NCBI GenBank assembly: GCA_040771865.1
Contig: JAXGZF010000005.1
Location: 62,001 to 126,000 of the forward strand
Reading direction: 5' to 3'
Length of the DNA: 64,000 nt
DNA from: Desulfobacterales bacterium
Lineage (GTDB): Bacteria > Desulfobacterota > Desulfobacteria > Desulfobacterales > UBA2245
Shown piece by piece: positions 28,846 through 50,818 of the stretch; position 1 is the stretch's first letter, and every line of letters starts with the position of its first letter. Under the pieces are notes generated by a model. That model was given only the letters and a program-made list of their open reading frames with translations, did no database searches and had not been told where the DNA came from. The position numbers and the translations under genes are program-made.

Positions 28846-29057
28846 TCACACTAAATAACAGCAAAATCGATCGTCTGTTCCATCCGAGTCAGTTGAACCA
28901 TGCGCTGGCAAAATCAAAAAAGGTTCATAAATCATAGCCGGCCGTTTCGCCGAGAAGTGCCGTTTGTTCAGGAATCTGCTTGAAGAAATTTGCCAGCCGT
29001 GTCATAAAAATTCCTTATTATTTTTTATCGTTCCGGGAGATTTCAGGGGAGGAAGGG

Positions 29058-29606
29058 GTGAACCAGACGGCCTTGGTTGTGGGCGGGTGCAGAAGCGGAA
29101 AAAGCAGATACGCCCTTGAGCTGGCGGAGCGCAGGTTCGGAGCAAGGAAGATCTTCATGGCGACCTGTGTTCCTGCGGACGGCGAGATGCGCTGCCGGGT
29201 AGAGCGGCATCAGGCAGAGCGGGGGCCTTCCTGGACCACGGTGGAATCTCCGTTTCGGCTATCCGAGGATCTGCTTTATCACAGTGAAAGGGCCGACGGG
29301 ATTATCGTGGATTGTCTGACGCTCTGGGTGAGCAATCTGATGATGGAAGGCCTGGAACTGGACGACGTTGCCCGCCGTGTTCAGACATTGACCGATGCGC
29401 TTGAGCGGGCAAGATGTCCGGTGGTGCTGGTGTCCAATGAGGTGGGAACCGGTATTGTTCCGGAAAACGCCTTGGCCAGATGCTTTCGGGATGCAGCGGG
29501 ATTTGCCAACCAGCAGGTGGCCCGGTGCGCGGACACCGTGGTGTGGATGGTGGCGGGAATTCCGGTGACGGTTAAACAACCTTCGGGCTTGGGAACAAAT
29601 CCATGA
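29058..29606 (+). CDS. cobU: Adenosylcobinamide kinase / adenosylcobinamide-phosphate guanylyltransferase
   Basis: GGCRSGKS, RHQAER, VDCLTLW, SNEVG.G; GTG start 29058. Confidence 0.93.
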   Translation: MNQTALVVGGCRSGKSRYALELAERRFGARKIFMATCVPADGEMRCRVERHQAERGPSWTTVESPFRLSEDLLYHSERADGIIVDCLTLWVSNLMMEGLELDDVARRVQTLTDALERARCPVVLVSNEVGTGIVPENALARCFRDAAGFANQQVARCADTVVWMVAGIPVTVKQPSGLGTNP

Positions 29607-30331
29607 GGGGGTTGATCTCGGCCATTCGGTTCATCACCGTGCTGCCGGCCGGAGAATCCGGAACCTTTGAGCCTCGAAATATGATTCCTTTTTTCCCGGT
29701 GGTGGGGCTGCTGCTCGGCGGCCTGACGGCCGGATTTGATTTCGTGGTTTCTCGTTTCTGGTCGGGTCCGACGGTCGCGCTGCTGGATGTTCTTTTTCTG
29801 GCGGCCTTGACCGGCGCTCTGCATATAGACGGCCTGGGAGATACGGCCGATGGCCTTTACGGCCGACGCTCCCGTGAAAAGGCCCTGGCCATCATGAAGG
29901 ACAGCCGGATCGGCATCATGGCCCTGATGGCGGTGGTTTCGGCCCTTGCCGTGAAATGGGCGGGAATTTTCGGGCTGGACGATCACCGCCTGCTGTTGAT
30001 TATCATCATTCCGGCCTATGCCCGGGGCAGCATGATCATGGGGATTTTCAGCCTTCCCTATGGAAGGCCCGAGGGGGGGACCGGTCGGCACTTTTTTGAT
30101 GAAAAGCTGGGATTTTCGGACTTTAAATGGATGGGGATTCCTCTATGTCTATCGCTCCTGCTGGGGTGGAAGTTTTTCTGGCTCAACGCGGTTTATGGTA
30201 TTCTGGTGTTTGCGTTGCTCCTGTTCTATAAGAAGCGCATGGGCTGCGTCACCGGCGACATGCTGGGCGCCATGACCGAAATCATTGAAGCTGGGCTTTT
30301 TCTGATGGTTTCCATGGAGTTTGCGGCATGA
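29603..30331 (+). CDS. cobS: Cobamide synthase
   Basis: GALHIDGLGDTADG, MKDSRIG, TGDMLGA; polytopic. Confidence 0.93.
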   Translation: MRGLISAIRFITVLPAGESGTFEPRNMIPFFPVVGLLLGGLTAGFDFVVSRFWSGPTVALLDVLFLAALTGALHIDGLGDTADGLYGRRSREKALAIMKDSRIGIMALMAVVSALAVKWAGIFGLDDHRLLLIIIIPAYARGSMIMGIFSLPYGRPEGGTGRHFFDEKLGFSDFKWMGIPLCLSLLLGWKFFWLNAVYGILVFALLLFYKKRMGCVTGDMLGAMTEIIEAGLFLMVSMEFAA

Positions 30332-31410
30332 TTCAGGGCCATGGCGGAAATATTTTTGAGGTGGCTGAACGGCTGGGATGTGCGCCATCTGAGATTATTG
30401 ACATGAGCAGCAATGTCAATCCTCTGGGACCGATGCCCGAACTGGTGGAACATCTTCAAAATATTCTTTCCGAGATCATGTCGGTATTGCCCCGGGTGGA
30501 TGCCGCAGACATCGTCGAGCTCTTTGCACGCCGTTACAATCTGGATCCCCGCTGTGCTCTGGCGGCAAACGGGAGCACTCAGCTGATATACGACATACCC
30601 CGGGCTTTTGAAACGAAAAAGGCAATCATTCTGGGCCCTACCTATGCGGATTACGCCGATGCCTGCCGAATGCAGGGCGTCTTGTTCGACGAATTTCTTG
30701 CTGAAGAAGACGATGGGTTTGTCCCGGATTTGAACCGGTTCGGAGACAGACTTTCCGATGCGGATTCGGCATTTGTCTGCAACCCCAACAATCCGACCGG
30801 CGTGTTGATTCCGGCACGTCAGTTGCGGGATCTGTGCGGCTCTCATCCCCGTGTGTGTTTTGTCGTGGATGAGTCCTATCTGCCCTTTGCGCCGGAAGGA
30901 GAGCGGCAATCCATGGCAGGTTGCGGGCTTGGCAATGTCGTTATTTTGAATTCCATGTCCAAGATATACAGGTTGCCGGGGCTGAGAATCGGTTTTCTGA
31001 TCGGACAGCCGGAAATGATTCAAAAAGCGGTCCGTTATCGTCAGCCATGGTGTGTGAACGGCCTGGCTCAGGCGGCCGTGTCGTATCTGATGGCGCATCC
31101 GCAGAATACGGATGCCTTTGTTGCCAAGACCCGCGTCCTTCTGGCAGAGGAAAGAATAAACTTTGTGCAGGCTTTGAATGAAGTTCCGGATATTCAATTT
31201 TATGATAGCAGCACCTCGTTTCTGCTGGCCAAATTGTCCGGAAGGTTTACCGCCGAAAAGGTATGGGATTTTCTCTGCCGGCAACGGATTCTCATACGGG
31301 ACTGCACGAATTTCAACGGCCTGACAAACCGTTTTGTCAGGTTTTCATTGAAGACACATGATATAAATACTATAGTAGCCCAAAGACTGGCGTTATGGAT
31401 GAAATCGTAA
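30328..31410 (+). CDS. cobD: L-threonine-O-3-phosphate decarboxylase
   Basis: HGGN, DMSSNVNP, CNPNNPTG, VDESY, SMSK.Y.LPGLRIG; cob context. Confidence 0.88.
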   Translation: MIQGHGGNIFEVAERLGCAPSEIIDMSSNVNPLGPMPELVEHLQNILSEIMSVLPRVDAADIVELFARRYNLDPRCALAANGSTQLIYDIPRAFETKKAIILGPTYADYADACRMQGVLFDEFLAEEDDGFVPDLNRFGDRLSDADSAFVCNPNNPTGVLIPARQLRDLCGSHPRVCFVVDESYLPFAPEGERQSMAGCGLGNVVILNSMSKIYRLPGLRIGFLIGQPEMIQKAVRYRQPWCVNGLAQAAVSYLMAHPQNTDAFVAKTRVLLAEERINFVQALNEVPDIQFYDSSTSFLLAKLSGRFTAEKVWDFLCRQRILIRDCTNFNGLTNRFVRFSLKTHDINTIVAQRLALWMKS

Positions 31411-31505
31411 CAGATTCGGCCCTAAAAGGTGGTGTTCAATATTGCGGCTCGCGATCTGTTTGTGAGGTAATTTAACCATTCGGGAGTTATGAGGTGGAGG
31501 TTGCG

Positions 31506-32468
31506 ATGGATTTCTCCAACACTTGGTATGTTATTCCGGCAGCATTTATTCTTGATCTTATCTTCGGCGATCCCCAAAATCTGCCCCATCCGGTTCGATG
31601 GATGGGAAATGCCATTACCGTCTTGGAGCCTTCTTTCCGAAGGCTTCCCTTCAGACCGGTCATTTCTGGGTCACTTTTTGCGCTATTCTTGATATTGGCC
31701 TCTTGGGCGGCCGTGGCTATTCTGGTCGTTCTGGCTGCCAAAATTCACCCTTTGGCGGCGGGCATTATTCAGCTGGCGCTGATTTTTTTCTGCCTTTCGA
31801 CCCGTTCTCTGCAACAGGCTGCCAAGAATGTGCTGACCGCCCTGCGGACGAATGACCTTTCAGCGGCCAGAAAAAATGTGGCGGAAATTGTCGGAAGAGA
31901 TGTCGCCGGTCTTAACGAGGCGGACGTGGCAAGAGCCACCGTCGAATCGGTCGGAGAAAATCTTGTGGACGGCGTGATTACGCCGCTTTTTTTTGCCTTT
32001 CTCGGCGGAGCTCCGCTGGCCGTTGCCTATAAAATGGTCAACACGCTTGATTCAATGATCGGATACCGCAACAAGGACTATATCGAATTCGGAAAGGCTG
32101 CGGCACGTATCGACGACGTTTTCAACTATATTCCGGCACGTCTTTCGGTTTTTTTCATCGCTTTGGCTGCCCAGATCACCCGTCGCAAAGGAATGCAGAC
32201 GCTTGCCATGGCTTTTGATCAGGGGAAAAATCATTTAAGCCCGAACTCCGGTTATCCGGAAGCCGCCTTTGCGAGCGTTCTGGAGGTTCGACTCGGCGGG
32301 CCTTCCACCTATGGCGGTGTTCAGGTCAGTAAGCCCTTTATCGGAGAACAGTTTGGCGAGGTTGCGACGGAAGACGTCAAAAAGGCCTCGAATCTGATGA
32401 TGATTTCAGCCGTTCTGGCACTGGTGGTTTTCTGGGTTGTCGCCGCCATTTTCAGCACAGCGGGCTGA
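31506..32468 (+). CDS. cbiB: Adenosylcobinamide-phosphate synthase
   Basis: GDP..LPHPV, NTLDSMIGY, ARIDD, SPNSGYPEA. Confidence 0.93.
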   Translation: MDFSNTWYVIPAAFILDLIFGDPQNLPHPVRWMGNAITVLEPSFRRLPFRPVISGSLFALFLILASWAAVAILVVLAAKIHPLAAGIIQLALIFFCLSTRSLQQAAKNVLTALRTNDLSAARKNVAEIVGRDVAGLNEADVARATVESVGENLVDGVITPLFFAFLGGAPLAVAYKMVNTLDSMIGYRNKDYIEFGKAAARIDDVFNYIPARLSVFFIALAAQITRRKGMQTLAMAFDQGKNHLSPNSGYPEAAFASVLEVRLGGPSTYGGVQVSKPFIGEQFGEVATEDVKKASNLMMISAVLALVVFWVVAAIFSTAG

Positions 32469-32538
32469 TCAAAGGCTCACGTCTGAATCAGGGTACAGGG
32501 GGCATTGTCATCTCAAGGAGGAAAGGGCTGATTGTTGA

Positions 32539-33348
32539 ATGCAGCCAAAGCTTTCACGCTCTTACAGAGGATTTTACCCTTTTAAACTGTCCGTTCCCTC
32601 TTTTGTTTATCCTGCAAGCTGGGCGGACAATGTCAGGGCCCTGGGGCCTTTTGTCGATGAGATCGAGCTTCTGCTGCTGGAAAGTGGACCCGAAAACCTG
32701 CCTTCAGCGACTCAGATTGATGAACTGGAAAGGCTCGCCGATACGCTTGAATTGACCTATAATGTCCATCTTCCAACGGATATTTTCCCAGGCCATTCAA
32801 ATTCCTTCATTCGCCGCAGAGCAATAGATGCGCTACGGCGTGTTCTGGATCTTGTCGGACCTCTGGGGCCTTCCACCTGCACATTGCACCTTACCCCTTC
32901 CGCTGATATTCAAACTGCGGATCAGATAGCTTCATGGCGTGATCGCCTGAATGAAGATCTGGAACAAATTCTCTCAAACGGGTTTCTTCCGGAGCAAATT
33001 TCCGTTGAAAACCTGTTTTATCCGTTTGACTGGTCGGAGCCAGTCATTACGGGACTTGGGCTTTTTGTGTGCATGGATGTCGGTCATCTCATGGTAAGCG
33101 GCATGGATGCCGGGCGTTTTTTTGAAGAATGGCGGCATCGGATTTCCATCATGCATCTGCACGGGGTGAATGGAAATCAGGATCATCTGAATCTTGACCG
33201 ACTCAATCCGGCGCAGATGGAAACCGTTCTGAAAATGCTCACCCGATACCGGGGAACCGTTTCTATCGAAGTCTTTTCTCTTGCCGGGCTGTCCTCGTCC
33301 CTGGCGGTGCTTGAAAAAAACTGGAATATACCGACAACCCGAAGCTGA
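32539..33348 (+). CDS. cbiR: Cobamide-remodelling phosphodiesterase (AP-endonuclease-2 TIM barrel)
   Basis: PSFVYP...DEIELL, YNVHLP, SVEN, MDVGH, MHLHG, DH, SIEVF metal-ligand pattern; lies at the end of the cob operon. Confidence 0.75.
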   Translation: MQPKLSRSYRGFYPFKLSVPSFVYPASWADNVRALGPFVDEIELLLLESGPENLPSATQIDELERLADTLELTYNVHLPTDIFPGHSNSFIRRRAIDALRRVLDLVGPLGPSTCTLHLTPSADIQTADQIASWRDRLNEDLEQILSNGFLPEQISVENLFYPFDWSEPVITGLGLFVCMDVGHLMVSGMDAGRFFEEWRHRISIMHLHGVNGNQDHLNLDRLNPAQMETVLKMLTRYRGTVSIEVFSLAGLSSSLAVLEKNWNIPTTRS

Positions 33349-36255: not shown

Positions 36256-36337
36256 CCGAAGGCTTCCATTTTCAGACTGTCTGCGGAATATCTTGACGGA
36301 AAGGATGAACTTTTCCAAATAAAAAAAGTCACTTGCA

Positions 36338-36506
36338 GAATCGTTTGGCCCCTTCGGGGATAACAGGGAAACCGGTGCGATTCCGGTACGGACCCGCCGC
36401 TGTAATCGGGGACGAAATCCGCACAAGGCCACTGGTTCTTTTAAGAGGATCGGGAAGGCGCGGAGACTAGACAGATCCGAGAGTCAGAAGACCTGCCATA
36501 CGGTTT
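36338..36506 (+). promoter_or_regulatory. Cobalamin (AdoCbl) riboswitch 1
   Basis: AACAGGGAAACCGGTGCGATTCCGG, CCCGCCGCTGT, GCCACTG, GGGAAGG and B12 box AGTCAGAAGACCTGCC. Confidence 0.95.
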
Positions 36507-36523
36507 GGCTTTGTGGAGACGGC

Positions 36524-36560
36524 AAATCCTCAAGCGTAGAACGCTTGAGGATTTTTTTTT
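36524..36560 (+). terminator. Attenuator terminator of riboswitch 1
   Basis: AATCCTCAAGCGT-AGA-ACGCTTGAGGATT followed by a T-run. Confidence 0.9.
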
Positions 36561-36613
36561 GAGGAAGACCTGATTTATTCGAAACCCTGAACAATGACAA
36601 TGGGTTGAATAAC

Positions 36614-37660
36614 ATGAAGACGATGAAAGCGGCTGTTTTGCTTCGGCCCGGAAGTCTGGAAATCCGCGAGGTAAAGCAACCGGCATGTCCGAAGGACGGC
36701 GTGCTGGTTCAGGTGAAAGCCTGCGGCATATGTGCGGCGGATGTGAAAATGCTGTCGGCGGGGCATCGCGCTCTGGTGTACCCGCGAATCCTCGGCCATG
36801 AGATTGCTGGAATTGTGGCGCAGAGCAGAAGCCCCCTTTTTCGGGAAGGCGACCGGGTTCAGGTGCCGCCCGGCCTGAGTTGCGGGGTCTGCAGGCATTG
36901 CCGAGCTCATGCGGACAACCAGTGCCCGTCGGTTCAAATTCTGGGTTTTAACCGGGACGGCGGGTTTGCCCAGTATTTGGCTCTTCCGCTCGGCATCGGA
37001 CCTGTCCGGGCGGTTTTGCATCCGCTTCCTTCGAGCATGCCCTTTGATCATGCGGTTTTTGCCGAGCCCCTGGCCTGTTGCATCAATGCTCAGAATAAGC
37101 TGGGCCTGAGTCGGAAGGATTCGGTGCTGATTGTGGGTGCCGGTCCCCTGGGACAAATGCATGCGGCTCTGGCGGCGCATCAGGGAATAGCACAGATTCT
37201 GGTGGCCGACATGGATTCGAGACGGCGGATACTGTCGGAGTCAATGGGGATAACGGTTCTGGATGCGCTGAATCCTCTTTTTTTTGAGCAGTTGAGTACT
37301 CTTACCGGCGGTCATGGTCTGGATGTGCTGATCTTTGCGGCAGGCGTTGGTCTGGATGACCGGTTTCTCGAGGCCATGGCTGCAGGAGGGCGTGTTTCGA
37401 TTTTCAGCGGCATGAGCGCTGATCATTCCAAGGCAGCTCTGGACTTAAACCGGATACATTACCGGGAGATCATCTTCGCCGGTGCTTACGGATGCACGGT
37501 GCGTCAAAACGCTCAGGCTCTTGAATGGATTGCATCAAACGGAGCGGCGGTTGAAAGACTGATCACCCGCCGCGTGTCGCTGACCGGTATTGCGGATGGA
37601 TTTTCCCATGTCCGGGAAAAAATTGCTCTGAAATCCGTCGTGGAGGTGGAACATGAATGA
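36614..37660 (+). CDS. Zn-dependent medium-chain dehydrogenase (polyol / threonine-dehydrogenase-like)
   Basis: CGICAAD, GHE, structural Zn CGVCRHC...C, EPLAC, GAGPLG Rossmann motif with downstream Asp (NAD preference). Confidence 0.88.
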   Translation: MKTMKAAVLLRPGSLEIREVKQPACPKDGVLVQVKACGICAADVKMLSAGHRALVYPRILGHEIAGIVAQSRSPLFREGDRVQVPPGLSCGVCRHCRAHADNQCPSVQILGFNRDGGFAQYLALPLGIGPVRAVLHPLPSSMPFDHAVFAEPLACCINAQNKLGLSRKDSVLIVGAGPLGQMHAALAAHQGIAQILVADMDSRRRILSESMGITVLDALNPLFFEQLSTLTGGHGLDVLIFAAGVGLDDRFLEAMAAGGRVSIFSGMSADHSKAALDLNRIHYREIIFAGAYGCTVRQNAQALEWIASNGAAVERLITRRVSLTGIADGFSHVREKIALKSVVEVEHE

Positions 37661-38762
37661 ATCGATCAGAGAGTTCGGACGGTATATCGATCAACTGATC
37701 GCCGGCCGGAACCTGACCCGAATGGAAAGCCGCGATCTTTTCGGTCAGATTCTGTCAGGCGATCAAACGGATATCCATCAGGGCGCCTTTCTTTCGGCGA
37801 TTACCGCCAAGGGCCCGACGCCCCAGGAAATCGCAGGGGCCTGGCAGGCCATATTTGAAATGGATACCGTCAGGGTGCTGCCGGATACTTCAAAACCCCT
37901 GGTGGACAACTGCGGAACCGGCATGGATGCTTTCAAGACCTTTAATATCAGCACCGGGGCTGCGATCGTGGCCTCTGCCGGGGGCGTATGCGTTGCCCGT
38001 CACGGCGCTCGGGCCATCACCTCCGAATGCGGCACCGTGGATCTGTGCGAGTCCCTTGGCGCGGATGTAGAATGCGGGCCGGAGATTGTGCGGGAAAGTA
38101 TAGAAAAAACGGGTCTTGGTTTGTTCAACGGAATGAGTTCTCAGATTCATCCCCGGGCCTTGTTTCGAATTCTTTCGCGAATGCGTTTTGGAAGCGTTTT
38201 GAATATCGCGGCCTCTCTGGCCAATCCTGCGCGCCCTCTTTACGGCGTTCGTGGGGTATATGACCCTGAACTGGTGATTCCCGTCATCGAGGCCATGCGG
38301 GAAATCGGATTTGTCCGGGCCATGGTCTTTCATGGCCTTCTGCCCGGAAAGAATGGCGGCATCGATGAACTTTCGCCTGCAGCGGAAAGCTTTGTGGCCG
38401 AACTGAACGCAGACGGGAAAATTTCTTCTTACTGGCTGGAACCGCGCATACTGGGAGTTGAGTATGACAAGCCGATAGATGCCATTGCCGGCTGCGGTGG
38501 GCCGCAAGAAGAGGCTCTGCGGCTTCTGGGCGTGTTTTCTGGAAAGGAAAAATCCGCATTGTATCAAACCATCTGTTTGAATGCGGCGCCGCTTTTTTAT
38601 GTATCCAGCACGGTTTCAGACCTGAAGGAAGGATTTGAAAAGGCCCGAGATGTCATCGATTCCGGACAGGCGCTGAATCAGGTCTTCAACTGGGTTCAGG
38701 CTCAGAACCGGAACCCGGAGCAGGGCCGTGTCCGCATGAACCAGCTGCTAGCAATGTTATGA
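37653..38762 (+). CDS. Divergent anthranilate-phosphoribosyltransferase-fold (TrpD-like) protein outside any trp operon
   Basis: DNCGTGMD..KTFNIST, ARHGARAITSECGTVD, IDE, NAA; overlaps the upstream gene by 8 nt. Confidence 0.8.
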   Translation: MNESIREFGRYIDQLIAGRNLTRMESRDLFGQILSGDQTDIHQGAFLSAITAKGPTPQEIAGAWQAIFEMDTVRVLPDTSKPLVDNCGTGMDAFKTFNISTGAAIVASAGGVCVARHGARAITSECGTVDLCESLGADVECGPEIVRESIEKTGLGLFNGMSSQIHPRALFRILSRMRFGSVLNIAASLANPARPLYGVRGVYDPELVIPVIEAMREIGFVRAMVFHGLLPGKNGGIDELSPAAESFVAELNADGKISSYWLEPRILGVEYDKPIDAIAGCGGPQEEALRLLGVFSGKEKSALYQTICLNAAPLFYVSSTVSDLKEGFEKARDVIDSGQALNQVFNWVQAQNRNPEQGRVRMNQLLAML

Positions 38763-38788
38763 AAAGTGCAAAAGGGGGTTGAATAACA

Positions 38789-39868
38789 ATGAACACGGGT
38801 AAACCGATTGAAGAGATCATCCGCGAGATAGAACCGGTCGATGGGGACTGGCTGGAAAAAGCCCGCGCCCGGACCCGGAGTCTGGTCATGCCCACCCGCG
38901 CCCTGGGTCGTCTCCATGAAATCGCGGAGCAGATTTGCGCCATTCAAAGAACTCTGACCCCGGCCATCGGCCGTAAGGCGATTCTGATCATGGCCGGAGA
39001 CCACGGAGTGGTCGCCGAAGGCGTCAGCGCATACCCGCAAAGCGTTACCGCGGAGATGATCCGTACCTTTCTCAGAGGCGGGGCCGGCATCAATGTTCTG
39101 GCAAGGCAGGTGGGCGCCGATGTCGCCGTGGTGGATACCGGAATTATTCCGGATCTGGATCCGAATATGTTCGTCGGCAACGAGCAGCTTCGAATCTGCA
39201 AGGTAGGCCGGGGAACGGCGAACCTTGCCCAGGGCCCGGCCATGACCCGAAGCCAGGCCGAAGCCTGTGTTTCCCTCGGCTTTCTGGCTGCGGAAAAATG
39301 GATCAAAGATGGGGTTGATCTGATTGGAACCGGCGATATGGGCATCGGAAACACCACGCCGTCTTCGGCCATCGGCGTTGTGATCACCGGTGCGGACCTG
39401 GACCGGATGGTCGGTTTGGGAACCGGTGTGGATGCTCAGGGTATTGCACGCAAGAAGGCGGCCATCGCGCGGGGCATAAAAATCAATGCTCCCGATGCCC
39501 CGGACGGTCTGGACGTCCTTTCCAAGGTCGGTGGATTCGAGATCGGCGCCATTGCCGGATGCATTCTGGCCGGGGCCTTTTACCGCCGGCCGGTCGTGGT
39601 GGACGGTTTGATTTCAACGGCAGGCGCCCTGATCGCCCATACACTCTGTCCTCTGTCCTCGCAGTACATGTTTGCCGCCCATTGTTCCGAGGAGCCCGGC
39701 CACCGGATCATGTTGAACCATCTGGGGCTGGTCCCCATTCTGGATCTGGGAATGAGACTTGGCGAGGGAAGCGGAGGCGCGGTAGCCATGGGAATCATGG
39801 AGGGCGCCGTGCGCGTGATGAATGAGATGCTGACCTTTGAAGAGGCTGGCGTGAGCGACAAGGAATAA
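38789..39868 (+). CDS. cobT: Nicotinate-nucleotide--lower-ligand-base phosphoribosyltransferase
   Basis: LGRL, AGDHGV, GDMGIGNTT, GGFEI, VDG.I, MRLGEGSG. Confidence 0.95.
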   Translation: MNTGKPIEEIIREIEPVDGDWLEKARARTRSLVMPTRALGRLHEIAEQICAIQRTLTPAIGRKAILIMAGDHGVVAEGVSAYPQSVTAEMIRTFLRGGAGINVLARQVGADVAVVDTGIIPDLDPNMFVGNEQLRICKVGRGTANLAQGPAMTRSQAEACVSLGFLAAEKWIKDGVDLIGTGDMGIGNTTPSSAIGVVITGADLDRMVGLGTGVDAQGIARKKAAIARGIKINAPDAPDGLDVLSKVGGFEIGAIAGCILAGAFYRRPVVVDGLISTAGALIAHTLCPLSSQYMFAAHCSEEPGHRIMLNHLGLVPILDLGMRLGEGSGGAVAMGIMEGAVRVMNEMLTFEEAGVSDKE

Positions 39869-39995
39869 GTTGCCCGGAAAGTGCCGTTGATTGGATTCAG
39901 GCATCTGGAAAGCAGGCTTATCGTTTTGCAGACAGGTCCGCACAACAAAAAAAATGGTTGACTTTGAAATGGTTTTTTTTTAAGGGTGATTTTCA

Positions 39996-40157
39996 CTCAG
40001 GTGCTCAATGGATTGAGCTCAAAAGGGAACCCCGTGTGATTCGGGGATGGGCCCGCCGCTGTGATCGGGGACGAAATCCGCAGAAAGCCACTGGTTCGAT
40101 TTGAATCGGGAAGGCGCGGAAAATAGAATGATCCGAAAGTCAGAAGACCTGCCTGAG
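39996..40157 (+). promoter_or_regulatory. Cobalamin (AdoCbl) riboswitch 2
   Basis: CTCAGGTG...AAAAGGGAACCCCGTGTGATTCGGGG, CCCGCCGCTGT, GCCACTG, GGGAAGG, AGTCAGAAGACCTGCCTGAG. Confidence 0.95.
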
Positions 40158-40225
40158 GGAAGAAGCCGTTGCCTCCGAGGAACAGAGGCGTTTGGCGTGT
40201 AAGATCTTGAGGATAAAAAAGGGAC

Positions 40226-40265
40226 ATCCCGGATCGATGATACCAATCGATCCGGGATTTTTTTT
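40226..40265 (+). terminator. Attenuator terminator of riboswitch 2
   Basis: ATCCCGGATCGAT-N7-ATCGATCCGGGAT followed by a T-run. Confidence 0.9.
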
Positions 40266-40294
40266 GCCCGGTGGAAGCTGCCTGCAAGGAGGAC

Positions 40295-42304
40295 ATGATG
40301 AAGGGATGGATCGTATCTTTTTGCGCTATCGTTATGCTGTGGACGACACCGGGGCTGTGCCTTGAGGCGGAAAAACAAGCGGAATCTCCGGTTCTGGAAA
40401 CCGTGGTGGTGACCGGCGCAAGAACCGAACAGAAAATTGAAACAGTAGCCGCCAATGTCACGGTGATAGACCGGAAAGCCATTGAATCCTCCAATGCCAA
40501 ATCCGTTGTGGATCTGCTGCGGGTCGAGGAGGGAATTGTGGTGAAAGATCTTTTGGGGAACGGTCGGCAGGCTCAGGTGGATCTGCGGGGATACGGGGAA
40601 ACAGGCCCCTACAATACCCTCGTGCTCGTAGACGGCCGTAGGGTCAACGAGATCGATCTGAGCGGAGTGGACTGGACCCAGGTTCCCCTGAATCAGATCG
40701 AGCGCATCGAGATTGTCCGGGGGGCCGGAAGCGTGCTTTTCGGTGATAATGCCGTGGGCGGAGTGATCAATATCATCACCAAAACGCCTGGCTCCGAACC
40801 TCGGGCTCGAGTCGAACTGTCCGGAGGAAGTTACGGAAAAAACAGCCAGTCCGCCTATGTGAGCGGCGGCAGCGAAAAATTTGCGGCCGCTGTTTTTGCC
40901 GACCGCGATTTCAGCGACGGATATCGGGACAACGGAGATTTTTCGGCCCTGGATGTGGGTTTCAAGATGTTTCTGTACCCTTCGGAATCCCTGACCATGC
41001 GTCTGGATGGCTCGCGTCATGTTGATGAATACGGCCTGCCCGGCGCTCTGACCGAGGCCGAGATGGCCGAGGATCGCACTGCCACCAACAGCCCGCAGGA
41101 TAATGCCGACAATGACGAACACTACCTTCGATACAGCGTAGACTGGGAGACAGGCGCCGGAAATTTCATTACAGACATCGCCTGGCGCGAACGCAGTTCC
41201 ATTTCGCGATGGGCCAGCTGGTCATGGTTCACCGATTCGGATATCGAGACCTGGTCCATTGCCCCCCGATACGTCTATGCCGGTGATGTTTTCGGGCATG
41301 AGAACACTCTGACGGCGGGTGTGGATGCTTATTGGACCCAGATGGATCTCGGGAGCTATTACAGCGCCGACATGAATGATCCCAGCGAGGTTTCCGACAT
41401 TTCGCGGGATTCTCTCGGACTCTATGTTCAGGACGACCTTTACGTGTTTGAAAATCTGATTTTCGGTCTGGGCGCGCGATTTGAAAAGGTCCGATACGAT
41501 TTGAATAAAAAAGACCTGACGGGCTGGTATTCTTCCCTGGACGCGGAGGTGGATGACGAGGAGTACGCCTGCAGCGTCGGACTGACCTATCTGTACGGCG
41601 AGAACTCTTCGGCTTTTGCCAGGTATAACCGGAGCCTTCGGTATCCCCTGGTGGATGAACTCGTGGTGTATGATTTTATGGCCGGTTCGATTGTGGTCAA
41701 TGAGAATCTGAAGCCCCAGACCGGCGATCATTATGATTTCGGCATCCGGCATAATTTTACCTCAAAACTTCAGGCCAGGGCTACGGTGTTCTTTTCAAGA
41801 ATTGAAGACGAGATTTTTTACAACAAGGCCACCTATTCCAACGAAAACCATCCCAAGACCTCTCATCATGGCGTGGAGACGGGACTTCGGGCGGATCTGT
41901 CCGATCATTTTACTATTTTCGGCAACTATACCTATGAAAACGCCGTCTTTGAAGCAGATCCGTACAAAGACAATGATATTCCGGGCGTTCCCGCACACAA
42001 GGCCAACATCGGCATTCTGGTGCGAGACCTGACGCCGGGACTGATCCTGTCTGCCTTATACAACTATGTGGGATCCAGTTATGCCATCAGCGACATGGCC
42101 AATGGGGTGGATAAACAAAAGGCCTATTATACGGTGGATCTGAAAGCTTCATATAAATGGAAAGGCATTCAAGGTTTTGTCGGCGTGAACAATATCACGG
42201 ACCAGGAGTATTCCGAATATGTGGTGGCGAGTTCTGCAGGAACCCGCGTTTTTTATCCGGCGCCGGAAAGAAACTGGATCGCCGGAATTCAAATCGAGTT
42301 TTAA
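40295..42304 (+). CDS. btuB: TonB-dependent corrinoid receptor (BtuB-like)
   Basis: Signal peptide, TonB box ETVVVTG, plug motifs LVLVDG, IERIEIVRG, GGVINIITK, C-terminal F; directly under a B12 riboswitch. Confidence 0.85.
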   Translation: MMKGWIVSFCAIVMLWTTPGLCLEAEKQAESPVLETVVVTGARTEQKIETVAANVTVIDRKAIESSNAKSVVDLLRVEEGIVVKDLLGNGRQAQVDLRGYGETGPYNTLVLVDGRRVNEIDLSGVDWTQVPLNQIERIEIVRGAGSVLFGDNAVGGVINIITKTPGSEPRARVELSGGSYGKNSQSAYVSGGSEKFAAAVFADRDFSDGYRDNGDFSALDVGFKMFLYPSESLTMRLDGSRHVDEYGLPGALTEAEMAEDRTATNSPQDNADNDEHYLRYSVDWETGAGNFITDIAWRERSSISRWASWSWFTDSDIETWSIAPRYVYAGDVFGHENTLTAGVDAYWTQMDLGSYYSADMNDPSEVSDISRDSLGLYVQDDLYVFENLIFGLGARFEKVRYDLNKKDLTGWYSSLDAEVDDEEYACSVGLTYLYGENSSAFARYNRSLRYPLVDELVVYDFMAGSIVVNENLKPQTGDHYDFGIRHNFTSKLQARATVFFSRIEDEIFYNKATYSNENHPKTSHHGVETGLRADLSDHFTIFGNYTYENAVFEADPYKDNDIPGVPAHKANIGILVRDLTPGLILSALYNYVGSSYAISDMANGVDKQKAYYTVDLKASYKWKGIQGFVGVNNITDQEYSEYVVASSAGTRVFYPAPERNWIAGIQIEF

Positions 42305-42503
42305 TTTTTAAGGATTTACTCCGATCTCTGAGGATCGGCATGCTCCCGGCCGGGAAGGGGTGACCTGAAACCCCTTCCCGTGCATTTTTGTACTGCGACG
42401 ATGCAATTCATCCCTTCTGTTGAACAAAATTTCATATTCGTGTAGACAAGTTCTGTTGTCGATATGGGCGGCAGACACATCAACTTTGATTCTGAGGAAA
42501 TTT

Positions 42504-43136
42504 ATGCGTGAAATTTTTATCAGCGGCGGTCCGGTAATGTATCCGCTGCTTCTGTGTTCCATTATGGTGCTGACCGTTGTCATTGACCGGTTGATTTTCT
42601 GGTTCCGGGTGGACCTGAACCGAAACCGGCCCCTGGTGGACGAAATTCTCGAGCTGAGCCGCAAAGGAGATTGGGAGGCGGTCAGAACCCGCGCGATTCA
42701 GAACAGGGATTATGTGGTCCGCATCCTGGTGACGGGCATTCTGCATCGCGAATTTTCCATGACCAAGGCCATGGAATCGGCTGCGGCGGATGAGATTCGA
42801 CGCATGCGCCGTTTCATGGGGGTGCTGGACACAATGATCACGGTGGCGCCGCTGCTGGGAATTTTTGGAACCGTGACGGGCATCATTACCTCCTTTGAGA
42901 TGCTCGGCTCAACAGGCATCGAGCATCCTCAAGCCGTAACCGCCGGAATCGCCCAGGCTCTGATTACGACTGCCGCCGGCCTGGGAATCGCCATCCTGTC
43001 CGTTTTTCCTTACAATTATTTCAACTCGCGGGTGGACCGCGCTGCCCAGAATATCGAAAAATACGCCACCAGCCTTGAAATCGTCTATGAAAAGATCGTG
43101 TATACCAATGGAACAACAGGGGAGAAGGATCGGTGA
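42504..43136 (+). CDS. exbB: ExbB/TolQ proton-channel protein
   Basis: APLLGIFGTVTG, GIAQALITTAAGL. Confidence 0.88.
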   Translation: MREIFISGGPVMYPLLLCSIMVLTVVIDRLIFWFRVDLNRNRPLVDEILELSRKGDWEAVRTRAIQNRDYVVRILVTGILHREFSMTKAMESAAADEIRRMRRFMGVLDTMITVAPLLGIFGTVTGIITSFEMLGSTGIEHPQAVTAGIAQALITTAAGLGIAILSVFPYNYFNSRVDRAAQNIEKYATSLEIVYEKIVYTNGTTGEKDR

Positions 43137-43543
43137 AGGTCAAGATCGATGATCGCAGACGTGCCCGCATTGAGATGCTTCCTCTGATCGACATCGTGTT
43201 TCTGCTGCTGGTATTTTTTATTTACGCCATGATGTCCATGGCCGTGCATCGTGGGATGAACGTCGCTCTGCCGGAATCTTCGACGGCCGGCAACGAAAAA
43301 AACCCGAAGATATCCGTGTCGGTAACGGCGGACGGATCGGTTTATGTGGACAAGGCGTCGGTTTCACCGGAATCTTTGACGGCGGTTTTGAAGGAAAAGG
43401 CCGCCGGCGACGGGCAGGCAGGCGCCATGCTTTTTGCGGACCGCGAACTGCCTTATCAGACGTTGTTTCGCGTTCTGGACCAGATTCAAATGGCCGGTAT
43501 CACAAAAATCTCTCTTCAAGCCAGGGCGGAACACCACCCGTGA
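43133..43543 (+). CDS. exbD: ExbD/TolR protein
   Basis: PLIDIVFLLLVFF, AD..LPY. Confidence 0.9.
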   Translation: MKVKIDDRRRARIEMLPLIDIVFLLLVFFIYAMMSMAVHRGMNVALPESSTAGNEKNPKISVSVTADGSVYVDKASVSPESLTAVLKEKAAGDGQAGAMLFADRELPYQTLFRVLDQIQMAGITKISLQARAEHHP

Positions 43544-44223
43544 GACGCCTGCTTTTTGCAGCCCTTGCGGCGGTCGGAATTCACGGCCTGTTGTTTGTCT
43601 GGGAGTTTGATCTGACGGTCGCTCCACATCGGCATGAGCCAGAGTCCCGTACGCTGAATATGATTCTGATATCCCCGGTGCCGGAAAAGCCGGCGGTCAA
43701 ACCGCTTGAACATCCCCGGAATTCTTTGCCGCGAGCGCCGGTTCCTCCTCCCCCGAAGCAAAAAGCCCCGAAACCCGTTCAGCCGGTCCAAAAACCGCCG
43801 GCGACACCCGCTTCGACCGAGCGGCCTTCGGAAGAATCCATTGCGGCGCCTGAGACGCAGCCTCAAGTCCTTCCGCAGGCCGAAGCTTTCGAACCGGTCC
43901 GGCCAGAGCTGTCTGAACGATCCGGTTCCGAGAACCTTTCGAACGTTGTGCGTGAAGCGGTCCCCATGTACCGGAGCAACGCGCCGCCGGACTATCCCCG
44001 CTCGGCACGGAAAAGAGGATGGGAGGGAACTGTCATTCTGGAAATCCTGGTGGATGTCGAAGGCAGCGCCAAAGACATTCGGATTAATGAATCCAGCGGA
44101 TATGATATTCTGGATGAGGCGGCCGCGTCGGCGGCAAAGAAATGGATGTTCGTACCCGGAATGAGAGGCGATGCTCCCGTGGAAATGTGGGTTCGCGTGC
44201 CTGTGACCTTTCAGCTGCAATAA
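43540..44223 (+). CDS. tonB: Energy transducer TonB
   Basis: TM anchor, Pro-rich linker, YP..AR..G.EG and SSG..ILD.AA C-terminal domain. Confidence 0.9.
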   Translation: MRRLLFAALAAVGIHGLLFVWEFDLTVAPHRHEPESRTLNMILISPVPEKPAVKPLEHPRNSLPRAPVPPPPKQKAPKPVQPVQKPPATPASTERPSEESIAAPETQPQVLPQAEAFEPVRPELSERSGSENLSNVVREAVPMYRSNAPPDYPRSARKRGWEGTVILEILVDVEGSAKDIRINESSGYDILDEAAASAAKKWMFVPGMRGDAPVEMWVRVPVTFQLQ

Positions 44224-46310: not shown

Positions 46311-48563
46311 TCATGCGTGCTCTTTCAAATAGCGGTAAAGCCCGGGATGGGTGCATACCTCGTAGTATTTTTGGCCGGTCGACCGGACCGGCTTCAGCGT
46401 TTCCGGAGACACCACTAAAATATCGTCCTCCCGAATAATCAACCGCTGATACTGTCCGGTAGCTGTAGGAAATATGCCAGTGTAAATCCGGATTTCGTCT
46501 TCCTGTATTTCGGGAACTCGGCAGGAAATAAATTTCAGATCGATCTCTCGGGCCAGTTTTTCAAATCCGTCTGCGTTCAGCTCAATACCATTAACGTTAT
46601 ATCTAAGAATCTGGTCATCTAAGGTTCCGTTTTCCTGATCGGATGCTGTATAAAAAATATAGAGATTGAAAGGGGCTGAACGATTTTCGATATGCTTGCG
46701 AATCCTTTTGGAACAGCTCGCCATACGGTCGGCCAGATTGATTGCCGGGGATATCATGATCGGTTTTTCGGCATCAAAGAGATAGGTCGGAGGCGCATCG
46801 TTAAAGCTGATTCCGATGCCGATCTCCAAGGGTGGCAAATGATAGGTTTTGTTCCTCTGGTTGTAATGCCCAACGATGGAAATCGTGTTCAGAGACAATC
46901 CGCAGGCGCGTGCTACCGCATACCATCCGCGGGGAGAATCTTCCCGTTCAAATATGGACAGAATCAGCGCATCGCCTTCTATAAAAACCTTTCCCGCTCC
47001 GTACCGGGGCAGGATGTTGGAGATGGGATCAAAAAAAGTCAGGCTGAAATAGGATGCCGGATTCAGCCCGGTTTCTTTCATTTGTTGCGTAATTTCCGTT
47101 GATCCACGGACATCGGCCTTTAAGATTACGTGATTGATGATCTGCTTTTCTTCCAGACGCTGTTCATGGGGCAACAAAAACTCGTACAACGATCGGTTCG
47201 CTCTGGAAAGATGAATGGTTTTTTCATCAAGATTCAGATTGATCCGGTCCATGACGTTTTGAATAATCTGCTGGTTGGTCCGGTCCCGGTGATAGGTCAG
47301 AAGCCTTGTCAGAAATTCGATGAGGTATTGTTTGCGTTTTTTCCTTGAAATCAGTTGAATCCGGTCCGCCATCTTCAACAGAGGTTTCAGGGATACAACT
47401 TCTCCGGTGATTTTCTGCAAACGTTCGATCCGGTCGTGAACCAGCCTTCTGCCTTTCCGGTCGATCAGATACTGCAGTACCAGCTGCGGGGCCAGGGGGG
47501 GGCAGTACTGATGGCAGATCGTTTTCATTTCAAAGATAGCCGAAATTCGTGGGATCAGGCCTTTTTTCCGAAACTCTCGGTAGAAAAAATCCAGGCATCT
47601 TTTCTGATTGCCGATACGGCTTTTTAAGGTGCGCAGATCTTCAGGAGATGCCCCGTTTTGAACCCGTTGTTTCAGATGCTCGGAGGTTTCGAAATAGTTC
47701 ATCAACAGGCCGATATTGTCTACCTGAAGCATCCATGCCTGAATTTCAGGATCCGACGAGGGCTTTGCGGTAGTATTGTGACCGGGCAATGGAGCGCTGT
47801 TCCTGGAGGCCAACTGTTCCATCAGTCCCTGAATTATTGAGACCAGGGGATCATAGCGATGGAGATCCTCGAAACGGTTGCCCAGCAGGACATAGTGCTC
47901 CATCATGAAAAAATCATCCGGATCTTTTGTATAAAGCAGCGGACCGGAAAAAAAATCGTCCGGCAGCAGATGCTCCGCGCCGAAATTGGATTTGCGGATG
48001 GATTTGAGCTCCGAGTTTTGCATTTCAACCAGATGGCCGAACAGTTCTTTACCGGATTGGATCAGGATCTGGCGTCGATTTCTGGATACCACCGTCAGCT
48101 CTTCCTTGAGCTTAATGGCGGCATGAGCGTCTTTAAAAGATTTTTCCTTTTGAAAGATCAGATGGCGGATTTGGTCCATCATCTTCTGAAACTGTTTTTC
48201 CAGCTCTTCGGTGAAAAATTTGACCAATGCCGCCTGGGCCATCAGATCGATTTGAATTTCCCTTTCTCGTTTTGCGAGGTTAAGGGCATCCAGAAGTACG
48301 TCTTTGCAAATTTGCTTGAATTCAACAACCTCCTGACCCCAACTCGACCTCCTGTCGGAATACAGAAAGATTTCCACCTCGGCGTGCCGGCAGACCAGAG
48401 CAAGAACAAAAGCGCCAGCCGCCTTTCGAAAGTCGTCGCTCAGATGCACATCGCAACGGATATTGTCCACTCCCATGCGGAGTCTGTCCATGGAGAAATC
48501 AACACGGTAGGATTTCAGAGGAAAATCCACGGCCTTAGGTATGGAGGAATAAAAAAGTTCCAT
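46311..48563 (-). CDS. Large helical protein with a C-terminal class III nucleotide-cyclase-like domain
   Basis: KADVRGST, IEGDA, EIGIGI, AINLADRM. Start is uncertain: 48563 is preferred over 48764, which collides with the divergent gene. Confidence 0.7.
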   Translation of the reverse strand: MELFYSSIPKAVDFPLKSYRVDFSMDRLRMGVDNIRCDVHLSDDFRKAAGAFVLALVCRHAEVEIFLYSDRRSSWGQEVVEFKQICKDVLLDALNLAKREREIQIDLMAQAALVKFFTEELEKQFQKMMDQIRHLIFQKEKSFKDAHAAIKLKEELTVVSRNRRQILIQSGKELFGHLVEMQNSELKSIRKSNFGAEHLLPDDFFSGPLLYTKDPDDFFMMEHYVLLGNRFEDLHRYDPLVSIIQGLMEQLASRNSAPLPGHNTTAKPSSDPEIQAWMLQVDNIGLLMNYFETSEHLKQRVQNGASPEDLRTLKSRIGNQKRCLDFFYREFRKKGLIPRISAIFEMKTICHQYCPPLAPQLVLQYLIDRKGRRLVHDRIERLQKITGEVVSLKPLLKMADRIQLISRKKRKQYLIEFLTRLLTYHRDRTNQQIIQNVMDRINLNLDEKTIHLSRANRSLYEFLLPHEQRLEEKQIINHVILKADVRGSTEITQQMKETGLNPASYFSLTFFDPISNILPRYGAGKVFIEGDALILSIFEREDSPRGWYAVARACGLSLNTISIVGHYNQRNKTYHLPPLEIGIGISFNDAPPTYLFDAEKPIMISPAINLADRMASCSKRIRKHIENRSAPFNLYIFYTASDQENGTLDDQILRYNVNGIELNADGFEKLAREIDLKFISCRVPEIQEDEIRIYTGIFPTATGQYQRLIIREDDILVVSPETLKPVRSTGQKYYEVCTHPGLYRYLKEHA

Positions 48564-48828
48564 GCGCTTTTCGAGTATGAAATTGGGCTCAAGGACGAAG
48601 TCAGAAAATTCAGATTCGAACCTACCACACGCCGAATAAAAATAAAATAATACTTTTGTATGTTTTTTGCTTCGTTGCTCCGTACGGGCAATATTTTTGA
48701 CAGGGATATGCTTTTCTTTTAAGATTGAAGCAAACTTTGCGTTTTGAACCGGTTTTGAATCCATGCCGGTTTATGGTGCGGCCCTTCGGTTAAAAATTAG
48801 CATGGACTTTCTGGATTCGGAGAACAGG

Positions 48829-50809: not shown

Positions 50810-50818
50810 GATGCAGCC

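Follow-up and report, generated by a model that had tools for sequence, protein, structure and literature searches.

The lower base of a cobamide decides which organisms and which enzymes can use it. To our knowledge, only three sources of this base are understood, namely BluB, the Bza enzymes, and ArsAB with the use of purines or phenols. BluB is an O2-dependent DMB synthase that acts as a flavin destructase, and anaerobic benzimidazole synthesis is reportedly encoded by a bzaAB/bzaF-cobT-bzaCDE operon (the work of Hazra et al. in 2015). ArsAB, which are CobT homologues, and CblT/CblS, in which CblS is a kinase, are alternative routes that activate or salvage lower ligands. Here we analysed a 64,000-nucleotide stretch of a Desulfobacterales genome (the window), in which cobT closes a cassette with two other enzymes, a Zn-dependent dehydrogenase (MDR) and a paralog of the anthranilate phosphoribosyltransferase TrpD (TrpDL). 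In literature searches we came across no account of such a cassette. If a widely distributed, B12-regulated enzyme pair is tied this closely to CobT, one of the best-studied cofactor pathways would gain an unrecognised step.

Layout, regulation and conservation of the cassette

The cassette and its surroundings consist of the following features.

28980..33348, + strand: cobU-cobS-cobD-cbiB and cbiR, context (Pfam CobU, CobS, Aminotran_1_2, CobD_Cbib, AP_endonuc_2)
32539-33348, + strand: cbiR, remodelling phosphodiesterase (NF041277, 257.5 bits against a cut-off of 105)
36329..36514, + strand: Cobalamin riboswitch aptamer heading the cassette (RF00174, 115.9 bits against a gathering score of 31.5; model positions 1-189, full-length)
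36524..36562, + strand: intrinsic terminator (attenuator) of the riboswitch expression platform (14-pair stem at 36524-36554, then a T-run)
36605..37660, + strand: Zn-dependent MDR dehydrogenase of the threonine/polyol-dehydrogenase group (ADH_N, PF08240, and ADH_zinc_N, PF00107; probable start ATG 36614)
37653..38762, + strand: TrpDL, phosphoribosyltransferase paralog of the TrpD fold, acceptor site remodelled (Glycos_transf_3, PF00591, 1.4e-54; Glycos_trans_3N, PF02885, 1.6e-15; TIGR01245)
38789..39868, + strand: CobT, NaMN:base phosphoribosyltransferase (TIGR03160, 418.4 bits against a cut-off of 319.3)
39982..40170, + strand: second Cobalamin riboswitch, context (RF00174, 122.9 bits), followed by a terminator at 40226-40258
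40271..44223, + strand: TonB-dependent receptor (BtuB-like), ExbB, ExbD and TonB, context (Pfam Plug/TonB_dep_Rec, MotA_ExbB, ExbD, TonB_C)

The first-pass annotation of this DNA had read a riboswitch with an attenuator ahead of the three genes, an 8-nt overlap between the MDR and TrpDL reading frames and a 26-nt gap from TrpDL to CobT; the covariance model and the hairpin bear out the former, and both distances match the ORF coordinates. The terminator scan returned 5 sites compared with a mean of 5.0 in shuffled sequences, and the weight of the hairpin therefore comes from its position directly behind the aptamer. The CobT of the cassette is the single CobT match in the genome.

The arrangement recurs in many genomes, as the first-pass annotation had proposed to examine. 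When 300 other genomes of the order were sampled, 51 proved to carry the TrpDL clade, nearly always adjoining MDR. Of the 48 clade loci examined within the order, 44 have MDR as a neighbour and 28 have a neighbouring or fused CobT; the other 20 show no CobT within 6 kb. Of the 45 loci scanned that extend far enough upstream, 38 have a Cobalamin riboswitch immediately ahead of the genes in the same orientation, and 7 have none. In metagenome loci, MDR adjoins TrpDL in 68 of 80, and of 11 long loci that have MDR and TrpDL alone, 7 carry the riboswitch. At least 15 loci encode MDR and CobT as one protein of about 700 aa, with MDR at the N-terminus and CobT at the C-terminus, and an unrelated-looking, archaeal-type CobT (TIGR00303) adjoins the cassette at two loci (L127 and L120). 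A scan with clade-specific motifs gave at least 478 relatives; clade members come from Desulfobacterota, proteins are named from Dehalococcoides and Methanosarcinales/Halobacteriota MAGs, and one locus has Gram-positive features.

On the basis of the synteny, the riboswitches, the MDR-CobT fusions and the adjacency of archaeal-type CobT, we are confident that the cassette is strongly linked to CobT and B12. This linkage also bears on the idea that the pair replaces a B12-dependent reaction, like metE or nrd genes behind B12 riboswitches, and has no role in the lower ligand. Such a bypass would fit the many loci whose riboswitch controls MDR and TrpDL alone, without any further cob gene, but it can hardly explain the fusion or the adjacency to both bacterial- and archaeal-type CobT, and we consider it very improbable.

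The dehydrogenase looks active as an enzyme. It keeps the catalytic Zn ligands (Cys, His/Glu, Glu), the structural Cys4 site and the GxGxxG motif when aligned to 4ej6 and 5kia, and 22 free and 15 fused copies likewise retain the Zn ligands and the NAD motif, 7 of the free ones having Glu in place of His. Its best NCBIfam matches are IolM and Tdh, all far under their cut-offs; for L-threonine 3-dehydrogenase, for example, it scored 155 bits against 380 (NF003808) and 137 against 458 (TIGR00692).

A TrpD paralog outside tryptophan biosynthesis

By name and score, TrpDL would be an ordinary anthranilate phosphoribosyltransferase (AnPRT) that serves tryptophan synthesis or is decaying from that role. 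TIGR01245 gives it 254.4 bits, above the cut-off of 199, which makes it a TrpD by NCBI's cut-off, its top PDB matches are all AnPRTs (e.g. 9ucw, E 5e-49), and every clade member is named anthranilate phosphoribosyltransferase in the databases. However, the rest of the pathway is missing. As had been claimed for the window, no other trp gene was found among the 39 ORFs between 20035 and 63513 in a Pfam scan, and the same holds genome-wide: searches of the 98.29% complete genome gave no match for TrpE/chorismate-binding proteins, IGPS or TrpA, only a sub-threshold 20.5 bits for PRAI (TrpF), and a best TrpB match of 44.5 bits against a cut-off of 392.

The acceptor site is altered as well. The motifs of TrpDL are GTGMD, RHGAR, CGTVD and LNIAASLANP, and compared with canonical enzymes GTGGD has become GTGMD, KHGN has become RHGAR and GPL has become ASL. 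The Asn position of KHGN is thus Ala (Ser in a few clade members), and the Arg of helix alpha8 has given way to Gly or is missing within F-G-S-x-L-N. According to PMC9835598 and PMC5537072, this Arg and the KHGN Asn bind the carboxylate of anthranilate; the role of the GTGGD motif in AnPRT is likewise taken from these papers. The changes are conserved across 48 aligned proteins, including 2 GTGAD rows later placed in a sister clade, and in 25 aligned clade proteins only the Met of GTGMD and the Gly replacing Arg are strictly invariant. Invariant replacement residues across the clade point to selection, not decay. In contrast to the acceptor site, the residues for the PRPP 5'-phosphate and the metals are kept (FNIST, T123-S124, D238-E239).

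In the TrpD tree suggested at first pass, the 45 TrpDL rows group in one clade (SH-aLRT 99) that excludes the 16 canonical TrpDs, the majority of which come from carrier genomes. A separate canonical trpD is found in most carriers, with a second TrpD-family match at 32-38% identity in 46 of 51, and in none of the searches of the present genome, where TrpDL is the only TIGR01245 match. The first-pass annotation had named, as an outcome that would speak against its proposal, a sole TrpD that complements a trpD mutant. TrpDL is formally the sole TrpD, but the sense is the opposite, since it is alone because the whole tryptophan pathway is absent, and both anthranilate-carboxylate ligands have been lost. 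Judged from its sequence, TrpDL is a distinct TrpD paralog clade with a remodelled acceptor site, and it is well supported that it is not a tryptophan-biosynthesis enzyme; the ordinary AnPRT explanation is close to refuted. If this reading is true, it would correct a systematic mis-annotation that falsely credits genomes with a step of the tryptophan pathway.

Cobamide metabolism and the candidate roles of the pair

CobU, CobS, CobD, CbiB and CbiR are present in the genome (CobD with 273 bits for TIGR01140, slightly below the cut-off of 290.55), and the corrin-ring pathway was not found in the 98.29% complete assembly. The proposed check for bluB and bza found neither gene in the genome. The best BluB match reached 48.4 bits against a cut-off of 150, and the single ThiC-family gene, located beside ThiE, is a true ThiC, scoring 643.7 bits against 410 with the ThiC model and only 573 bits against 700 with the BzaB model. 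Its gene content marks the organism as one that salvages and remodels cobamides and has no known benzimidazole route. The first-pass suggestion of an undescribed, CobT-linked and B12-regulated enzyme pair is therefore well supported, with its synteny, riboswitch and fusions recurring and with this genome lacking other trp genes, bza and bluB. We think it likely that the cassette is B12-repressed and provides CobT with the lower (alpha-axial) base, or readies that base for it, during the assembly of the nucleotide loop.

How the pair would do this is much less certain. Among the three options put forward at first pass, ribosylation of an aryl amine followed by redox at the sugar fits best, and we tentatively favour it in a four-step form, in which all of the reactions, and the nature of the substrate, are inferred. 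First, TrpDL with PRPP and Mg2+ would N-phosphoribosylate a carboxylate-free aromatic amine or N-heterocycle, possibly taken up from outside. Second, the Zn-MDR would oxidise, with NAD+, a secondary hydroxyl on the sugar of the ribotide. Third, the oxidised sugar would fragment and free the finished base; in the most specific version, an ortho-amino group would attack the open-chain C1' imine, ribose C1' would become benzimidazole C2 and a four-carbon sugar phosphate would be lost, which resembles the logic of BluB without O2. Fourth, the base would be handed directly to CobT, which would form the alpha-ribotide from NaMN. We know of no direct precedent for a Zn-MDR that oxidises the sugar of a ribotide or for the proposed fragmentation. 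It also speaks against the model that no chorismate-utilising enzyme was found in the genome and that we identified nothing that would furnish a fitting aromatic amine or diamine. A hint of an imported aromatic substrate is given by channels and transporters: in 8 loci the operon includes a gene for a PF13557 outer-membrane channel, which in this genome is under a separate Cobalamin riboswitch, and AI-2E or MFS transporters lie directly downstream of the cassette at three loci (L127, L169 and L180).

The same B12-regulated channels and transporters would also suit the capture and release of a scarce finished base, in which TrpDL traps an imported benzimidazole or other base as a charged beta-ribotide by means of PRPP, and MDR, at the fused CobT, then oxidises the sugar so that the base is freed or the ribotide anomerised. 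Base salvage usually works by PRPP-driven trapping, the genome belongs to a pure salvager with CbiR and without base synthesis, and the MDR-CobT fusion suits a hand-over of the base. However, CobT alone activates free bases, which makes two extra enzymes look redundant and costly, and we know of no precedent; the observations are compatible with a finished base and with a precursor alike, and we regard capture and release as unlikely.

Another option from the first pass, in which TrpDL makes or regenerates the beta-ribotide donor of CobT, for example NaMN from released nicotinate and PRPP, has lost ground and is decidedly unlikely. The stereochemistry fits, as alpha-PRPP yields a beta-ribotide that CobT converts to an alpha-ribotide, and so does the tight linkage to two different CobT families. 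However, NadC (211.6 bits) and a NAPRTase-family gene are already present in the genome, nicotinate has a carboxylate although TrpDL has lost both carboxylate-binding residues, and the dehydrogenase, which is the more constant partner, would be left with no role.

With CbiR encoded 3 kb upstream in the window and CbiR-like genes adjoining the cassette at two loci (L073 and L087), the pair could also, as in the remaining option from the first pass, break down or re-use what CbiR or CbiZ sets free from unwanted bases in the form of ribosides or ribotides. Such recycling is very unlikely: most carrier loci have no CbiR nearby, the fusion partner is CobT and not CbiR, and remodelling frees alpha-ribosides, whereas TrpD-type chemistry uses beta-anomers.

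If the base-supply reading of the cassette is true, it would explain how salvagers without BluB or Bza get or handle a base, and the base supply of salvagers bears on organohalide respiration and syntrophic consortia. In its boldest form, which we consider rather unlikely, the cassette would be a third, so far unrecognised way to make a lower ligand of the benzimidazole type or another N-heterocycle, independent of O2 and radical SAM, in which a TrpD-derived enzyme ribosylates an ortho-diamine or amine and a Zn-dehydrogenase, often fused to CobT, triggers ring closure and sugar fragmentation, with C1' becoming imidazole C2. Salvagers, including some Dehalococcoides and members of methane- or ethane-oxidising consortia, would then have their own base supply.

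Comparison with described systems

Compared with TrpD (AnPRT, EC 2.4.2.18; PF00591 and PF02885), TrpDL shares the two-domain fold families, the ribose-5-phosphate residues and the DE metal residues. It differs in having GTGMD for GTGGD and RHGAR for KHGN, in lacking the carboxylate Arg and Asn, and in forming a separate clade, and it is encoded with MDR and CobT behind a B12 riboswitch, not among trp genes. With Tdh, IolM, IdnD and GatD of the MDR family the dehydrogenase shares a Zn-binding and a Rossmann domain, the two Zn sites and a motif of the NAD type, but it falls far below the equivalog cut-offs and, at 15 loci or more, forms one protein with CobT; to the best of our knowledge, a CobT fusion has not been described for enzymes of these types. 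Like ArsAB and CblT/CblS, the cassette would be an accessory system that gives the CobS step an activated base, although those systems belong to other families and use other chemistry.

A parallel in organisation is the bza operon, which is also a B12-riboswitch operon of anaerobes with proposed base-making genes beside cobT; the cassette, however, lacks the ThiC-like radical-SAM enzyme and has a phosphoribosyltransferase and a Zn-dehydrogenase instead. A second ThiC-family gene, a possible BzaF, occurs in 7 of 45 cassette carriers and 11 of 45 non-carriers, which gives no anticorrelation. In three genomes (G075, G112 and G037) the two systems coexist, each with its own CobT and the bzaF-like gene adjoining the second one, and the cassette is thus not simply a substitute for Bza. 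BluB shows no homology to the cassette and needs O2, but the favoured model would share its chemical outcome, in that a sugar C1' becomes benzimidazole C2 and a four-carbon sugar phosphate leaves.

The cassette and its cobamide-related neighbours in the window

The first-pass annotation described a B12 riboswitch followed by a Zn-dependent dehydrogenase gene (MDR), a TrpD-fold phosphoribosyltransferase gene (TrpDL) and cobT, and this arrangement, with an overlap of 8 nt between MDR and TrpDL and a gap of 26 nt between TrpDL and CobT, was borne out by Rfam, ORF and Pfam/NCBIfam analyses. The relevant features of the window are the following.

28980-33348: cobU-cobS-cobD-cbiB cluster, then a CbiR gene, upstream of the cassette
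36329-36514, + strand: full-length Cobalamin riboswitch aptamer (115.9 bits; gathering score 31.5)
36524-36554: 14-pair hairpin and T-run behind the aptamer, putative attenuator
36605-37660: MDR ORF, Zn-type MDR dehydrogenase by Pfam/NCBIfam
37653-38762: TrpDL ORF, TrpD fold (TIGR01245, 254 bits; cut-off 199)
38789-39868: CobT ORF, bona fide CobT (418 bits; cut-off 319)
39982-40170: second Cobalamin riboswitch with its own terminator, controlling a TonB-dependent receptor and ExbB/ExbD/TonB

There is no space for a promoter or terminator between the three cassette ORFs, which are translationally coupled and under B12-dependent control. For MDR, alignments to solved dehydrogenases favour the ATG at 36614 as the start. 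Since the scan found five terminator-like sites against a mean of 5.0 in shuffled sequences, it is solely the position of the hairpin behind the aptamer that points to an attenuator. Upstream of the cobU-cobS-cobD-cbiB cluster, in which CobD is a CobD-like threonine-phosphate decarboxylase, no riboswitch was found, and the model for CbiR, a cobamide remodelling phosphodiesterase, was passed by the window gene at 257.5 bits (cut-off 105). Elsewhere in the window, an 817-aa ORF without a Pfam match (46311-48764, - strand) adjoins a DUF6599 / DUF362 / multi-4Fe-4S gene group at 48763-52684.

TrpDL as a separate clade and its conserved gene order

Matches to TrpDL were bimodal across an order sample of 301 genomes (the window's own genome, G000, and 300 others of the same order). 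TrpDL-level matches were found at 54 places in 51 other genomes (44-91% identity, E <=1e-93), and canonical TrpDs matched at 32-38% identity with E about 1e-50. As 46 of these 51 carriers have at least two TrpD-family matches, TrpDL is normally an extra copy; the separate canonical trpD is thus present in most carriers, but not in G000. The divergence proposed in the first-pass annotation also held in a quick maximum-likelihood tree (IQ-TREE), where 45 TrpDL rows lie on one side of a branch with SH-aLRT 99, apart from 16 canonical TrpDs taken mostly from carrier genomes; two rows (L188 and L199) were wrong ORFs with a branch length of 10 and are uninformative. Among the TrpDL rows are proteins with names from Dehalococcoides mccartyi and from Methanosarcinales and Halobacteriota MAGs. 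A search of genome contigs with the TrpDL protein alone returned one locus (L010, 91% identity) and is superseded by searches of genome samples from the order and the phylum and by scanning metagenomes for clade motifs. The phylum sample of 401 genomes gave 9 further carriers outside the order, and the metagenome contigs, searched with two clade-specific motifs, gave at least 478 relatives.

Fifty loci of the order were fetched with flanks of about 8 kb, 48 of them being counted as true clade loci. Two loci, L082 (G075:C2) and L088 (G264:C1), were removed from the clade counts; they carry GTGAD without the other motifs and represent a sister family distinct from TrpDL. The neighbours of L082 are IGPS, PRAI, a RibD_C reductase and a molybdopterin oxidoreductase, with neither a riboswitch nor MDR.

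In the 48 clade loci, with genes placed by tblastn, the co-location of TrpDL homologs with MDR, cobT and the riboswitch was confirmed: 44 have MDR as a same-strand neighbour, 28 have CobT either adjacent or as a fusion, and 38 have a Cobalamin riboswitch (Rfam) immediately upstream in the same orientation. Rfam found no riboswitch upstream in 7 loci (L053, L055, L056, L060, L070, L084, L087), 2 loci were cut by the contig end and 1 was outside the scan. In two of these riboswitch-less loci (L053 and L055, family f37), TrpDL is preceded by genes of the shikimate pathway, encoding a type II dehydroquinase and a shikimate kinase. Among the kept metagenome loci MDR is adjacent in 68 of 80, and nearly all of the other 12 end beside the gene. 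A metagenome subgroup with only MDR and TrpDL has the riboswitch in 7 of 11 long loci, one of which (L180) lies beside pilin and sortase genes of Gram-positive type. One metagenome contig (L106) carries the TrpDL-CobT-receptor segment twice, inverted, around a truncated TrpDL, which is probably an assembly artefact.

The association with CobT takes several forms. In at least 15 of the 48 loci, the gene after TrpDL encodes a single protein of ~700-745 aa with an MDR N-terminal half and a CobT C-terminal half (for example L055, with DBI_PRT at 415 bits and TIGR03160 at 419 bits), so that an active-looking Zn-dehydrogenase is recurrently fused to CobT. In two other loci (L127 and L120) TrpDL neighbours an archaeal-type CobT (TIGR00303; 301 and 391 bits), which extends the connection with the CobT reaction to a second, very different CobT family. 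CobT was found in each of the 38 carrier genomes tested, 31 of which have exactly one copy, and in many of these one-CobT carriers, G000 included, the adjacent or fused copy is the only one.

Additional partners were observed. In 29 loci, TrpDL and the MDR(-CobT) gene are separated by a conserved ORF of ~90-100 aa. This ORF matches no Pfam family, lacks a homologue in G000 and may be an additional, fourth element of one type of cassette. Outer-membrane channels of PF13557 (the 'phenol MetA' family) occur inside the cassette in 8 loci and also in L017. In G000, a channel homologue (58% identical) lies away from the cassette, directly behind a third Cobalamin riboswitch, where a 218-aa protein without a Pfam match accompanies it. 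AI-2E or MFS transporters lie directly 3' of TrpDL in L127, L169 and L180. These channel and transporter neighbours hint that the cassette substrate is a small aromatic imported from outside.

L065:7753-8034, - strand, and L055:7184-7492, - strand: examples of the small ORF, found also in 27 other loci
G000:C8, L181 6616-7827, - strand: third Cobalamin riboswitch (114.2 bits) and PF13557 channel

Downstream of TrpDL/MDR in L075 (3582-6605, - strand) are genes for a P-type ATPase and for an O-methyltransferase carrying a dimerisation domain (Methyltransf_2), which we take to be the domain type of BzaC; on the upstream side are a BtuF-like binding protein and two more methyltransferases.

Tryptophan and cobamide genes in carrier genomes

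The assembly of G000 (2.98 Mb), in which the window is C5:62001-126000, is 98.29% complete, and TrpDL is its sole TIGR01245 match. Genome-wide family searches, in which each trp family was detected in 14/14 control genomes, gave no match in G000 to TrpE or any chorismate-binding enzyme, IGPS or TrpA, and at best 20.5 bits for PRAI and 44.5 bits for TrpB (cut-off 392). Because these families are missing from a nearly complete assembly and the sister species G001 retains a canonical TrpD (C8:159597-160574), a recent loss of the trp pathway with tryptophan auxotrophy is suggested. Only two TP_methylase genes (514 aa and 307 aa) are present, and this copy number leads us to infer that G000 has no corrin-ring pathway. 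The proposed check for bza/bluB was also negative in G000: the best BluB match reached 48 bits (cut-off 150), and the sole member of the ThiC family is a true ThiC located beside thiE (ThiC model, 643.7 bits against 410; BzaB model, 573 bits, below its cut-off of 700). From these absences, the two TP_methylases and CbiR, G000 appears to be auxotrophic for tryptophan and to salvage and remodel cobamides, with no known route to benzimidazole; it nevertheless retains a TrpD-like gene behind a B12 riboswitch. Two unlikely rival explanations are that the cassette recycles the by-products of remodelling, or that it belongs to a B12-independent bypass. A third, in which TrpDL supplies the donor NaMN to CobT, takes up the beta-ribotide donor option of the first-pass annotation and is weakened, since G000 already has NadC and a NAPRTase-family gene.

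A second ThiC-family gene was found in 7/45 carriers compared with 11/45 non-carriers, and the BzaB model, the only Bza model used here, exceeded its cut-off in 0/90 genomes. In three carriers, a second ThiC-like gene adjoins a second CobT in what looks like a bzaF-cobT pair, and TrpDL has its own MDR-CobT fusion, which in G037 is far from TrpDL.

G075:C2:1221106-1223489: ThiC-like gene and second CobT
G112:C12:56829-59278: ThiC-like gene and second CobT
G037:C3:2596880-2599333: ThiC-like gene and second CobT

Given this coexistence, and with no clear depletion of second ThiC-family genes in carriers, the cassette appears not to be simply a Bza replacement, and it may serve another base or another base source.

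Predicted chemistry of the cassette

The residue changes of TrpDL are consistent through the clade in an alignment of 48 proteins, which includes two GTGAD sister-clade members; strict invariance was judged on 25 clade proteins.

Motif changes from canonical TrpD to the TrpDL clade
GTGGD to GTGMD
KHGN to RHGAR
SGSAD to CGTVD
G-x-R-T-x-F-N-x-L-G-P-L-x-N-P to F-G-S-x-L-N-I-A-A-S-L-A-N-P

According to published work, GTGGD is the signature PRPP loop of the family, and the carboxylate of anthranilate is held by the Arg of helix-alpha8 and the Asn of KHGN (PMC9835598, PMC5537072). Compared with TrpD/AnPRT, TrpDL shares the 5'-phosphate ligands (N-x-S-T, T-S) and the DE metal ligands, but differs in GTGGD and has lost both carboxylate ligands. 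The simplest reading of these residues is a PRPP-dependent transferase whose acceptor would no longer be an aromatic carboxylate. Public names of clade members are uniformly 'anthranilate phosphoribosyltransferase', and the ESM Atlas gave generic AnPRT clusters only; a plain, housekeeping TrpD is rejected, as TrpDL is the sole TrpD in a nearly complete genome where the trp families searched were not found, and its acceptor-site residues are changed.

For MDR, the best NCBIfam equivalogs (IolM and Tdh, ~155 bits) are far below their cut-offs of 380-450, and the closest solved relatives are the uncharacterised Zn-dehydrogenase 4ej6 and threonine 3-dehydrogenases. In 22 free copies and 15 fused ones, MDR retains the catalytic Cys, His-Glu pair and Glu, the GxGxxG motif, all four structural cysteines and, following the second strand, an acidic residue that suggests NAD as cofactor; the catalytic His is replaced by Glu in 7 free copies. 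With these residues kept, MDR looks like an active secondary-alcohol or polyol-type dehydrogenase.

Gene fusions usually join consecutive pathway steps. The MDR product is thus probably the substrate of CobT, a free base, with TrpDL acting before MDR. We consider a role of the cassette in lower-ligand supply for CobT to be quite likely. In the scheme that we propose, TrpDL would convert an aromatic amine and PRPP to a beta-N-ribotide, MDR would oxidise a sugar hydroxyl of the ribotide with NAD+, and the oxidised sugar would fragment to release the base to CobT. This order of ribosylation, sugar oxidation and release of the base is a tentative proposal, to which we give somewhat less than even chances; a less likely rival is the capture and release of a finished base. 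In its boldest version, an ortho-diamine would close onto ribose C1', which would become C2 of benzimidazole, and we regard this ring closure as rather unlikely.

In a full-text literature search, no paper was found in which either CobT or the lower ligand is connected with a TrpD-like protein, an early mention (Rodionov et al. 2003) being possible; the sought terms are absent from the text of PMC6461909. A figure legend on cobalamin-associated regions of a Chlorobium lists just the names 'trpD' and 'DH', the former being a candidate member of the TrpDL clade (PMC8620254).

In conclusion, the cassette is probably a lower-ligand operon under riboswitch control that draws on enzyme families to which this task has so far not been attributed, and it could prove to be categorically new chemistry. 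The ring-closure version would resemble the chemistry of BluB, but would proceed without O2.
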